DNA from: Escherichia phage Dewey
DNA: 40,352 nucleotides
Direction: 5' to 3' (one strand)
Sequence record: PQ850600.1
Position 1 is the first letter of the stretch; each line of letters starts with the position of its first letter. A program made the position numbers and the translations under genes. The notes beneath the pieces are model-generated. The model did not search any database. It was not told the origin of the DNA and worked only from the letters and a program-made list of their open reading frames with translations. Shown here in pieces: positions 17,320 to 19,153 of this stretch.

Positions 17320-18513
17320 CTATGCCACTTTTTCATCAAGCCAATCTGCCCACCACTGCATCATTTCTCTGCGCTTATCAAGATACTGAGCATGGTTGTA
17401 AATTCCACGCACAGATCCGCCGTTGGCATGTGCCAGTTGCACTTCAATAGCGTCAGCAGGCCATTCGTGCTCGTTCATAATCGTGCTGAATTCATGCCTG
17501 AATCCGTGACCGCTTTCCAGACCCTCATAGCCGATTTGTTTGATCACAAGTAGCACCGCGTTCTCGCAGATTGGCTTTTTCTTATCGTTGCGCCCGGCAA
17601 AAACAAACTCTGATACTGGTTTGGTGATTGAGCTTAGCGTAGTGAGAAGTTCAACCACCTGGTCTGACATCGGTACTACATGAATTTTGCGGCCCTTCAT
17701 CACACTGGCGTCGATAGTGATAATCCTGTTTTCAAAATCGACGTTCTTCCATTGCATGGAACGAAGCTCTTTCGTTCTTAGGGCTGTGTAGCGTAAAACT
17801 TTGGTCGCAATGAGCGATACGATGCTTCCTGAAAATGTTGCCAGTGCTTTGTTGAATGCAGGGATCTGGTCTGCTGGAAGAAACGGGAAGTTCTTCTTGC
17901 GGTATCCTTTCATGGCATCTGCAAGGTCAGGTGCCGGGTTATATTTAGCCCTTCCGGTGACAATAGCGTAACGAAAAACCTCGCCGCATCTTCTGCGGGC
18001 TTTGTTGGCTCGCTCCATTGCACCGCGATCTTCAAATCTGCGGATTACTTCCAGCAGTTGCATCGGCTCAATATCCTGAATCTCAAGACCGCCGATGATG
18101 GGTAAAATGTCGTCATCAAACATTTTGGCAAGTTCAGTTGCATAGCCTACTGACCAGACTTGCTTCTTGTGCTCGTACCATTCCTTGTAAATCGCACTAA
18201 ATGAATTGTTGTTAGACGAAGCCTTTTTCGCCTTTACCGGATCGATGCCAACCGAGATGTCTTTCCTCGCAGTCCATGCCTTATCCCTTGCTTCCTGCAA
18301 AGTCATAAGCGGATATTTTCCGACAGTCAGGATTTTCTCCTTACCGTCAATCTTGTAGCGAAGCTGCCATACCTTTTTCCCTGATACAGGGACATAAAGG
18401 TACAGGCCATTACCATCGAGTAGGCGGTATGGTTTTTCTTTCGGCTTTGCTGCTTCAATCTGCTTAACGGTGAGCATGGGTAAAAATCCGGTGGGTAAAA
18501 TTATTTTATCCAC
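17320..18513 (-). CDS. int: tyrosine integrase, P4-like family
   Basis: 397 aa ORF; N-terminal arm-binding-type sequence (LTVKQIEAAKPKEKPYRLLDGNGLYLYV), C-terminal catalytic region (HGFRHEFSTIM...); true start may be the Met at 18477. Confidence 0.9.
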   Translation of the reverse strand: MDKIILPTGFLPMLTVKQIEAAKPKEKPYRLLDGNGLYLYVPVSGKKVWQLRYKIDGKEKILTVGKYPLMTLQEARDKAWTARKDISVGIDPVKAKKASSNNNSFSAIYKEWYEHKKQVWSVGYATELAKMFDDDILPIIGGLEIQDIEPMQLLEVIRRFEDRGAMERANKARRRCGEVFRYAIVTGRAKYNPAPDLADAMKGYRKKNFPFLPADQIPAFNKALATFSGSIVSLIATKVLRYTALRTKELRSMQWKNVDFENRIITIDASVMKGRKIHVVPMSDQVVELLTTLSSITKPVSEFVFAGRNDKKKPICENAVLLVIKQIGYEGLESGHGFRHEFSTIMNEHEWPADAIEVQLAHANGGSVRGIYNHAQYLDKRREMMQWWADWLDEKVA

Positions 18514-18735
18514 TTTTTACCCGTCATGGAGTGCGGCTGTCAACGATCTGACGCGAACCATGACGAACTGCGAATCTACGGAAGACTTGATATTCAGGGG
18601 ATTTTGCGGACTGGTACGGATGGGAGCGAACTGATAAATGGTGTCCCCTGCAGACATCTACTTGACGCGGCAGGGGATTGATTGGAATGATGTTTTTTTA
18701 GATGTGAGAAATATTTTACCCGCTATTTTACCCAT
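18476..18735. repeat. cluster of GGGTAAAA / TTTTACCC motifs around the int start and xis end
   Basis: GGGTAAAA at 18478 and 18493; TTTTACCC at about 18527, 18716 and 18727; read directly. Confidence 0.5.
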
Positions 18736-18928
18736 TAGCGCGGCTTAAGAGCTTATTTTTGAATTCACAATGGTCACGATATAACCATCGTGCTCGCCCG
18801 TGGATAACTTTGGCTTTAGGCAGGTCTCCGGACTTAATCCGGTCATAGATGAAGGTCTTACCGAAGCCAGTATCGGCCATGATGAATTTCAAATCAACCA
18901 GTGAATCAGGCTGTAGTTCGTGTTGCAT
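18728..18928 (-). CDS. xis: excisionase / AlpA-family DNA-binding protein
   Basis: 66 aa; LVDLKFIMADTGFGKTFIYDRIKSGDLPKAKVIHGRARW fits the AlpA/Xis HTH pattern; directly upstream of int. Confidence 0.7.
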   Translation of the reverse strand: MQHELQPDSLVDLKFIMADTGFGKTFIYDRIKSGDLPKAKVIHGRARWLYRDHCEFKNKLLSRANG

Positions 18929-18934
18929 GAGTGC

Positions 18935-18961
18935 TATCTCCGAATAGGGAATCGAACCTGC
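18935..18961 (-). other. tRNA 3'-half-like fragment (T-arm-like TGCAGGTTCGATTCC), possible att core or remnant
   Basis: minus strand reads TTTGCAGGTTCGATTCCCTATTCGG; not a complete tRNA. Confidence 0.25.
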
Positions 18962-18970
18962 AAATCAGGC

Positions 18971-18994
18971 AATAAAAAACCGCCATCAGGCGGC
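18971..18994 (-). terminator. intrinsic terminator (minus strand)
   Basis: minus strand CCGCC-TGAT-GGCGG followed by TTTTTTATT; overlaps the stop codon of the small upstream gene. Confidence 0.6.
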
Positions 18995-19153
18995 TTGGTG
19001 TTCTTTCAGTTCTTCAATTCGAATATTGGTTACGTCTGCATGTGCTATCTGCGCCCACAGCATCCAGTGGTCATAGCAGTCGTTGATGTTCTCCGCTTCG
19101 ATAACCCTGTTGAATGGCTCTCCATTCCATTCTCCTGTGACTCGGAAGTGCAT
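18986..19153 (-). CDS. small hypothetical protein (55 aa, below the ORF-track cutoff)
   Basis: ATG at 19153 with GGAGATGATAA RBS; MHFRVTGEWNGEPFNRVIEAENINDCYDHWMLWAQIAHADVTNIRIEELKEHQAA; ends in terminator. Confidence 0.45.
   Translation of the reverse strand: MHFRVTGEWNGEPFNRVIEAENINDCYDHWMLWAQIAHADVTNIRIEELKEHQAA

Follow-up and report, generated by a model that had tools for sequence, protein, structure and literature searches.

The window, i.e., the whole 40,352-nt stretch of Escherichia phage Dewey DNA analyzed here (PQ850600.1), represents a P22-like phage whose recombination module is of the IntS/TorI type found in KplE1 (CPS-53), HK620, Sf6, CUS-3, and Kapi1. ORF coordinates give the gene order xis–attP–int, with the int promoter within the P′ arm. 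Read along the minus strand, the locus consists of a terminator, a T-loop-like box, torI, the P arm, a 16-nt core, the P′ arm, and intS. The P arm is composed of two GGGTAAAA arm-type sites, and the P′ arm of five predicted TorI sites followed by three arm-type sites interleaved with the int promoter. The features of the locus are listed below.

17256-17316, minus strand: dyad past the int stop codon, arms 10/10 complementary; a terminator-like structure, not an att site
17320-18477, minus strand: intS integrase gene, 385 aa, ATG at 18477 (Pfam domains and K-12 identity)
18454-18751, minus strand: attP span taken as functional from its homology to the KplE1 in vitro substrates attL (220 bp) and attR (135 bp)
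18478-18485, plus strand: predicted IntS arm-type site P′3, directly next to the int ATG and reading TTTTACCC on the int strand
18493-18500, plus strand: predicted IntS arm-type site P′2 (repeat position; PMC2951348)
18515-18522, minus strand: predicted IntS arm-type site P′1, overlapping the PintS -10 box (TAAAAA, 18514-18519)
18538-18543, minus strand: PintS -35 box TTGACA (sequence; PMC2951348, section 6)
18544-18631, minus strand: five predicted TorI (RDF) sites, with identities from PMC2951348, section 8
18544-48, minus strand: predicted TorI site I5, GATCG
18554-58, minus strand: predicted TorI site I4, GTTCG
18564-68, minus strand: predicted TorI site I3, GTTCG
18607-11, minus strand: predicted TorI site I2, GTCCG
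18627-31, minus strand: predicted TorI site I1, GTTCG
18638-18653, minus strand: attP core CTGCAGGGGACACCAT, the crossover region, equal to the argW 3′ end (junctions and record annotations)
18714-18721 and 18726-18733, minus strand: the two GGGTAAAA copies of the P arm, predicted as IntS arm-type sites P1 and P2; the copy at 18726-33 overlaps the torI stop codon
18728-18928, minus strand: torI/hkaC excisionase (RDF) gene, 66 aa (PDB 1z4h match)
18936-18941, minus strand: torI Shine–Dalgarno region GGAGAT, conserved in alignment A2
18947-18963, minus strand: T-loop-like box; the 16-mer TTGCAGGTTCGATTCC (18948-63) equals argW 46-61, with its core GTTCGATTCC at -29 from the ATG
18971-18996, minus strand: hairpin and T-run resembling an intrinsic terminator, placed just ahead of the box at the end of the upstream (ea-region) transcription unit

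IntS is identical to K-12 IntS at 383/384 residues, and its Pfam domains (Arm-DNA-bind_3, Phage_int_M, and Phage_integrase) are those of a tyrosine integrase with an N-terminal arm-binding domain. TorI is a 66-aa winged-helix RDF that matches PDB 1z4h (‘Tor inhibition protein’) over its full length (E=6.6e-43), and clusters at 100% identity carry the names TorI/excisionase. DNA of HK620, Sf6, N7, and Bas106 matched the whole region at 97–99.8% identity. Based on the IntS and TorI matches and this DNA identity to relatives, the module was assigned as a KplE1/HK620/Sf6-type IntS–TorI argW recombination module.

The 16-nt core CTGCAGGGGACACCAT, which the initial annotation did not note, has the same sequence as the argW 3′ end in the host, in keeping with the tRNA target proposed there. 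Positions 18653 to 18639 correspond to argW 61-75 and, besides the 16-mer upstream of torI, form the sole argW match of at least 15 nt in the window; the longest argW match in 100 shuffles did not exceed 14 nt. The same bases are annotated as the attP core in the HK620 and Sf6 records. In near-identical modules, prophage–host junctions fall at this core, as seen in K-12 attL/attR, IMG/VR prophage ends, and empty attB sites. In K-12, attL consists of argW followed by the P′ arm of the window (179/184 identical), and attR of the window’s torI and P arm (the latter ~97% identical), then the core and host DNA. Outside the core, attP and host were identical at 7/30 and 9/30 positions, i.e., at chance level. 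Eighty IMG/VR loci share one sequence from torI as far as CTGCAGGGGACACCA, beyond which they diverge into at least six host flanks or into the continuing attP. An intact empty attB, with argW joined to the dsdC side, was found in 912 of 5426 E. coli genomes. For Kapi1, a 17-bp duplication AATGGTGTCCCCTGCAG has been described, and deletion of attB abolished site-specific lysogeny (PMC8787464).

The crossover is thus at the published 16-nt core, 18638-18653 on the minus strand, for which we infer the half-site layout C GATGTC / overlap TGCAGGG / C′ GACACC. The functional attP span was placed by mapping the primer positions from PMC3509656 (section 3.6) onto the window. Small ORFs are annotated across the core in HK620 and Sf6 (hkaB and gene 17, respectively; 18517-18657 here); we consider them spurious, as the frames are not conserved and are broken in HK620, L115-L119, and L122. 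Word-index, HMMER, and IMG/VR searches showed that relatives with a readable att site, down to ~50% identity, all target argW. The attP of the present phage is very probably the HK620/Sf6/KplE1-type site recombining with the argW end, and the fragment at 18948-18963 is not a recombination site, an assignment based on the junctions of near-identical relatives.

The GGGTAAAA octamer occurs six times in the window (0.83 expected; maximum of three in 100 shuffles). Five of the copies are clustered around the int start and the xis end, flanking the int ATG (18477) and overlapping the xis stop codon (18728-30); a single-mismatch copy, GGATAAAA, lies at 18504-11. The earlier suggestion that the five repeats are arm-type integrase sites agrees with their positions: they are the predicted IntS sites P1 and P2 at the xis stop and P′1–P′3 over the int promoter and start codon. 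The P-arm repeats are annotated as attP repeats in HK620. In KplE1, both the P′ sites, which carry the TAAA motif, and the TorI sites have been characterized and studied by mutation (PMC2951348); P′1 overlaps the int -10 box (PMC2951348, sections 6 and 8). The -35 (TTGACA) and -10 (TAAAAA) boxes occupy positions homologous to the mapped PintS (PMC2951348). In the window, the TAAA-containing repeats on both arms and the five GTTCG-like predicted TorI sites on the P′ arm are reported as sequence presence only.

By analogy with KplE1, for which the steps have been shown, and given the 97–99% identity on which their transfer to this phage relies, strand exchange by IntS would take place within CTGCAGGGGACACCAT. 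Since the core is identical to the argW 3′ end, integration would restore the tRNA and split intS from torI, with intS ending beside attL and torI beside attR. Expression of int would be kept low by IntS occupying the arm-type sites across the -10 box and by TorI bound close to the -35 box, and excision would be triggered by TorI supply.

Two other att locations were weighed. Upstream of torI, the minus strand from 18964 to 18948 reads TTTGCAGGTTCGATTCC, and its last 16 nt (18963 to 18948) are identical (16/16) to E. coli K-12 argW 46-61, spanning the variable loop, the 5′ strand of the T-stem, the T-loop, and CC. The initial annotation had recognized this stretch as T-arm-like, resembling argW/thrW-type 3′ halves, but not as a complete tRNA. 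ARAGORN found no tRNA in the window, Rfam gave no tRNA match for 18300-19300, and the relatives share no consensus structure, leaving 18948-18964 with no foldable tRNA or T-arm. Its further proposal that the fragment at 18948-18963 is the attachment core, with crossover in the argW T-arm, draws on the 16/16 identity and on the fact that many P4-family integrases cross over in the T-loop. This proposal is refuted by the junction data and hardly tenable. The junctions fall at CTGCAGGGGACACCAT, across xis from the fragment at a distance of 295 nt, and do not coincide with 18948-18964; in K-12 KplE1 and the 80 IMG/VR ends, the fragment stays inside the prophage, beside or upstream of torI. With the crossover at this fragment, torI and the P arm would not be included in the prophage. 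In addition, a 135-bp attR, which starts at the torI 3′ end, and a 220-bp attL suffice for KplE1 excisive recombination in vitro (PMC3509656), and the box lies ~200 bp outside these substrates (positions mapped from PMC3509656). The lysogen-junction check, made via relatives, therefore supports the broader candidate region 18476-18997 and not its tRNA-like part, 18929-18965.

The interval between tailspike and int (17081-17319) would be the location by analogy with lambda and P22, with the dyad as core. The dyad noted there is real, CACCTACATC at 17256-65 pairing perfectly over 10 bp with GATGTAGGTG at 17307-16, but the interval contains no argW match of 12 nt or more, the region downstream of intS in K-12 consists of prophage genes and not of host DNA, folding gave nothing unusual (z = -0.6), and HK620 annotates a terminator at this place, downstream of int. 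This reading is likewise refuted and practically excluded, in line with the earlier preference for the int–xis interval.

The conservation of the box was then assessed across TorI loci. GTTCGATT is located at -29 in 78 of 81 E. coli TorI loci, a few E. coli variants carrying point changes in the box, while among other genera 17/35 loci have it between -26 and -42, a position that accounts for 20 of the 24 forward-strand occurrences in 168 kb. A second RDF subfamily, 50% identical to TorI, has other arm repeats (GCGGGCATAA) with the same argW core; here, GTTCGATT is present at -29/-30 in 63 of 80 loci. The pattern GTTCGATT.C is invariant in an alignment of 48% mean identity, and the box occurs in tandem copies in L113-115 and L118. 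Among 47 E. coli variants, differing upstream genes converge at the terminator-like hairpin (18971-18996), and a sigma-70 scan found no promoter at the box region upstream of torI. About half of the non-E. coli relatives do not have the box, which is therefore dispensable; in these, the terminator is directly followed by the SD, or the upstream gene overlaps xis.

The GTTCG motif of the box is invariant; the extended GTTCGATTCC differs from the TorI sites of the P′ arm, which read GTTCGC or GTTCGT and never GTTCGA. The C and C′ sites suggest the core-type consensus G(A/G)TGTC, whereas the box keeps GATTCC. With both comparisons mismatched, neither IntS nor TorI fits the box perfectly. RNAalifold detected neither a consensus structure nor covarying pairs among box relatives, and Rfam gave no match; an RNA structure or tRNA mimic was rejected on these grounds. 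Without conserved RNA structure and with its core fixed at about -29, the box looks like a selected DNA or leader element. It reproduces argW just left of the crossover, i.e., the B side of attB, and contains the TorI motif GTTCG; possibly, it is a TorI site or an operator that mimics this B side. The box would most likely serve as a protein-binding operator within the leader of torI, giving IntS and/or TorI control over RDF expression. As a tentative, more specific proposal, the box may act as an ‘attB mimic’ in which a B core-type half-site and GTTCG are placed in the RDF leader, so that the proteins recognizing the host target would gate RDF expression. IntS produced constitutively in the lysogen could then hold torI silent, or TorI could limit itself, and the box might be kept in two Int/RDF lineages since both share the tRNA target.

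Alternatively, the box could act in the torI mRNA leader, either as a T-arm mimic or as an anti-Shine–Dalgarno element in which UUCC pairs with GGAG 5–8 nt downstream, damping TorI translation. The distance from the box to the SD and ATG is fixed, the UUCC/GGAG complementarity is found in all variants, and, with a terminator immediately ahead of it and no evident promoter, the box is probably transcribed as leader; furthermore, the related RDF of P4, Vis, was suggested to act on int mRNA (PMC2951348, discussion). We nevertheless consider this unlikely, considering the negative RNAalifold and Rfam results, the loss of the T-stem in most relatives, and the inability of a 4-bp anti-SD helix to account for the GTTCGA invariance. 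It is quite unlikely that the box is a neutral argW relic with no present function, left by an ancestral attP with longer tRNA identity or by aberrant excision capturing host DNA. The E. coli 16-mer does end exactly (1-nt overlap) where the core begins in argW, and relatives retain a T-loop-like TTCGAT in register beside the attP core, with CAGGTTCGATTATGCAGGGGACACCA in L125; the att DNA of the family is thus derived from argW over a longer stretch. A relic should decay, yet many genera and two RDF subfamilies, with unalignable flanks, carry GTTCGATTCC unchanged and at a constant spacing from the xis ATG. Moreover, the box is found as tandem direct copies, only a sub-motif is kept while the 5′ part of the T-stem (GCAGG) is not conserved, and the box is likewise present in relatives that have a T-loop-like sequence of their own next to the core. 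The latter point, the non-conserved GCAGG, and the tandem boxes also rule out an insertion of torI plus the P arm into the argW 3′ half, an idea suggested by the 16-mer (46-61) abutting the core (61-75).

Finally, the HK620 and Sf6 records annotate a cII-activated pI promoter here, with a cII site TTGCCTGATTTGC (18960-18972) whose second half-site is the TTGC of the T-arm 16-mer. That the box is part of such a promoter is highly unlikely. The spacing is TTGC-N5-TTGC instead of the canonical N6 flanking a -35 with a usable -10, and the window contains eight such patterns where 3.6 would be expected. KplE1 and many E. coli variants have TTAC in place of the first TTGC, which is absent from other genera and the second RDF family, both of which keep GTTCGATTCC. 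The sigma-70 scan is negative, and int has its own mapped promoter (PMC2951348).

Together, our results on attP confirm textbook knowledge for this phage group, as the site of HK620/Sf6/KplE1-type phages is already known and well studied, and they are mainly useful for genome annotation. The KplE1 authors argued that excision in this family is governed mainly by RDF supply and described the torI promoter as uncharacterized (PMC2951348). The strictly positioned, tRNA-derived box common to two RDF lineages is a candidate for the missing control element of the excisionase gene.

Among known systems, the KplE1 (CPS-53) prophage of E. coli K-12 shares with this phage the integrase, TorI, the core, and the arm-type and TorI sites, as well as an int promoter that overlaps the P′ arm and the box in front of torI. 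It differs in being defective, 10 kb long, and present as attL plus attR; here, the joined attP is found in a complete P22-like genome. The Lederbergvirus phages HK620, Sf6, CUS-3, and Kapi1 share 97–98% DNA identity across 18400-19000 with only point differences, and the core and repeats of attP, along with the gene order, are annotated in them at homologous positions; for Kapi1, integration at this site was examined genetically (PMC8787464). The lambda attP (P-C-O-C′-P′, with arm- and core-type Int sites, Xis, and IHF) follows a shared logic: a heterobivalent tyrosine integrase, arm repeats on both sides, a short core of identity, and an arm bound by the RDF. Unlike in lambda, attP here lies between xis and int, placing the genes at opposite prophage ends. 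Further differences are that the P′ arm (attL) carries the RDF sites, that int is transcribed from an autoregulated promoter of its own within attP, and that the target is a tRNA 3′ end. P4 differs in that its target is leuX and vis is not adjacent to attP. Its int/vis system shares the Arm-DNA-bind_3 type of integrase and the att position upstream of int. In P4, repression of int comes from Int as well as from the RDF (PMC2951348, discussion).

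The integrase-excisionase module and the adjacent tailspike gene are arranged as follows:

15086-17080 (+), P22-like tailspike gene
17320-18477 (-), integrase gene intS, 385 aa
18728-18928 (-), excisionase (RDF) gene torI, 66 aa

The integrase carries Arm-DNA-bind_3, Phage_int_M and Phage_integrase domains and shares 383/384 residues with the IntS protein encoded by KplE1/CPS-53, a cryptic prophage of K-12. For the excisionase, a full-length match to 1z4h, the solved structure of TorI, was obtained. Phages HK620, Sf6, N7, HK633 and Bas106 share 97-99.8% DNA identity with 18400-19000, and CUS-3, Kapi1 and phiv205-1, deposited as prophages, gave part matches only, breaking within 18476-18997, where the initial annotation had proposed an attP region. 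As mechanically called, the tailspike ORF begins 32 codons (15086-15181) 5′ of MSDITPNVV, the usual head-binding N-terminus of P22-like tailspikes; translation probably begins at 15182 (ATG). Neighbouring ea-region ORFs on the minus strand (19590-22355) look like paralogues: 21379-21819 and 21816-22355 have in common an MSNIDKQALRE start and NP(T/A)TVLALLDELE, and 19590-20216 and 20715-21107 have in common RIALASLEAEPVAW.

The T-arm-like fragment previously noted upstream of torI is present, 18964 to 18948 (-) reading TTTGCAGGTTCGATTCC, with 16 bases identical to argW 46-61. The window contains one other long argW match, overlooked in the initial annotation, and the homologous bases are annotated as 'attP core' in the HK620 and Sf6 records. 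At K-12 attL, argW is continuous with a sequence identical to the window P′ arm at 179/184 positions, followed by intS; at attR, torI and the P arm (~97% identical) are followed by the same 16 nt and then unrelated host DNA. Beyond this core, the identity between attP and host drops to what chance would give (7/30 and 9/30). Across 80 IMG/VR loci with identical TorI, the sequence 3′ of torI is constant through CTGCAGGGGACACCA; beyond it the loci either read on as attP or enter host DNA, with six or more different flanks. Of 5426 complete E. coli genomes, 912 have an intact copy of the reconstructed empty site, in which argW adjoins the dsdC side. A duplicated 16-nt core, CTGCAGGGGACACCAT, borders KplE1 (PMC2951348). 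In Kapi1 the same att lies between int and xis, and site-specific lysogeny was lost on deletion of attB (PMC8787464). Together, the phage annotations, prophage junctions, empty attB and published work therefore place the crossover at 18638-18653, 295 nt from the fragment yet within the proposed region. Left of TGCAGGG, a half-site with consensus AATTCGATGT(A/C), GTAGATGTC in the window, emerged as conserved when 25 distinct relatives were compared, and GACACC is the inverted counterpart on the right. These half-sites suggest a C-overlap-C′ layout like that of lambda, in which TGCAGGG would be the 7-bp overlap and argW would give B = TTCGATTCC.

The repeat cluster also stood: GGGTAAAA occurs six times against 0.83 expected, a count reached in none of the shuffles, with five copies grouped within 18478-18733, near the start codon of int and the stop codon of xis. 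Such clusters are annotated as attP repeats in HK620 and Sf6. In KplE1, site identities were established by mutagenesis and primer extension (PMC2951348 sections 6 and 8); by near-identity, we infer the following sites:

18478-85, P′3 arm-type site, abutting the int ATG
18493-500, P′2 arm-type site
18504-11, degenerate copy GGATAAAA
18515-22, P′1 arm-type site, overlapping the PintS -10 box (18514-19)
18538-43, PintS -35 box TTGACA
18544-48, 18554-58, 18564-68, 18607-11 and 18627-31, TorI sites I5, I4, I3, I2 and I1
18638-53, core
18714-21, P-arm arm-type site
18726-33, P-arm arm-type site, covering the torI stop codon

The attL (220 bp) and attR (135 bp) substrates used for in vitro excision (PMC3509656) map to 18454-18751. 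The sixth exact GGGTAAAA, at 18100-18107 (+), lies 370 bp into the int coding region and codes for I-L-P on the int strand; it is a candidate IntS site only, the homologous HK620 bases carrying an attP repeat annotation.

An uninterrupted torI-attP-intS was also found in 17 E. coli genome records, one per genome (e.g., NZ_CM142764.1, NZ_CP100909.1). Twelve are chromosomal; each also has two or three additional part-matches, giving 3-4 places per record, a pattern suggestive of tandem prophages at argW. The other five are separate records of 12.8-179 kb assigned to plasmids, with attP as their only match (e.g., NZ_CP146940.1, 12.8 kb; NZ_CP081786.1, 39.4 kb); the two of them that are phage-genome-sized, at 39.4 kb, may represent phage circles that were excised and then assembled as replicons. 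The core of Klebsiella phage vB_Kpn_Chronis (1745-1765 of its locus), TGCAGGGGACACTTG, has no CCA after the discriminator region, and at some E. coli attR junctions divergence sets in after GACAC instead of after CCA. Lineages may therefore vary in the extent of the identity block or in the crossover limit, in which case the tRNA gene left by some integrations would lack an encoded CCA.

The tailspike-int interval does contain the dyad (17256-65/17307-16), 4 nt beyond the int stop codon. As previously judged, this interval is not the preferred att location, and the dyad was rejected as an att site: argW similarity sought in it was not found, its fold is no better than that of shuffled sequence (z = -0.6), and HK620 has a terminator annotated at its position.

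The region and arm sites of the earlier attP reading held, and its use of the T-arm-like fragment as crossover did not. At K-12 and IMG/VR prophage ends this box lies inside the prophage, not at the junctions, and it is not needed for recombination because it falls ~200 bp outside the attR substrate. The box is nonetheless not noise. Among 47 E. coli variants of the upstream sequence, the preceding gene is one of at least three, and all meet at a terminator (18971-96), followed by the same ATT(G/A)CCTGATTTGCAGGTTCGATTCCCTATTCGGAGATAGCACTC-ATG, and GTTCGATT stands at -29 in 78/81 E. coli loci. In Enterobacter, Serratia, Citrobacter, Pantoea, Edwardsiella, Hafnia and other genera, with TorI 70-91% identical and flanks unalignable, 17/35 loci retain GTTCGATT.C without change, between -26 and -42. 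Of 24 forward-strand occurrences of GTTCGATT in 168 kb, 20 are at this xis-upstream position. In loci L113-L115 and L118 the box is doubled in tandem; variants without the box have the terminator then the SD directly, or an upstream gene overlapping xis. In a 4.87-Mb Hafnia chromosomal contig, xis, attP and int are contiguous (L122 2001-3634), with box ACAGGTTCGATTCCC upstream of xis and, unlike in the E. coli module, arm repeats CTATACGC / GCGTATAG-like before int.

The same box occurs at -29/-30 in 63/80 loci (33/45 distinct upstream sequences) of a second RDF subfamily, represented by P0108, 50% identical to TorI. There conservation does not extend to the bases that would form the T-stem 5′ strand, leaving GTTCGATTCC(C) as the selected unit. 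Its att sites combine a different arm repeat, GCGGGCATAA, with the same argW core. In L132-L211 (IMG/VR; e.g., L133 2700-2850), this lineage targets the argW core TGCAGGGGAC(A/G)CCA through an arm-type repeat, TGTGGGCATAA..TGCGGGCATAA, that differs from that of the window module; two arm specificities thus converge on one tRNA target. All relatives with a readable att site, down to ~50% identity, target argW.

The box keeps its position and its sequence while the flanks have diverged, it recurs in tandem direct copies, and RNA covariation is lacking, all of which indicates a sequence-specific element, a putative protein-binding site being the simplest case. One candidate binder is TorI, with mapped sites GTTCG, GTCCG and GATCG, although its P′ arm sites read GTTCGC or GTTCGT. 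The other candidate is the IntS core-binding domain, which must recognise the box sequence as the B side of attB; this fit is also imperfect, the stronger core-type consensus being G(A/G)TGTC versus the GATTCC kept in the box. A leader RNA, its UUCC pairing with the GGAG Shine-Dalgarno sequence, is unlikely: a consensus RNA structure was sought for the box and none was found, and Rfam gave it no match. That the box is a plain relic seems distinctly improbable to us. A cII-dependent pI promoter, annotated at this spot in HK620, is very improbable: it rests on TTGC-N5-TTGC, which departs from canonical spacing and lacks conservation of its first repeat, and the window has 8 patterns of this kind versus 3.6 expected.

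The initial observation is confirmed and its interpretation partly supported. The attP of this module is already known in detail, excision control is said to rest on RDF expression, and the torI promoter is called uncharacterised by the KplE1 authors (PMC2951348). The only element of possible novelty beside this known system is the T-loop-like box conserved upstream of torI.
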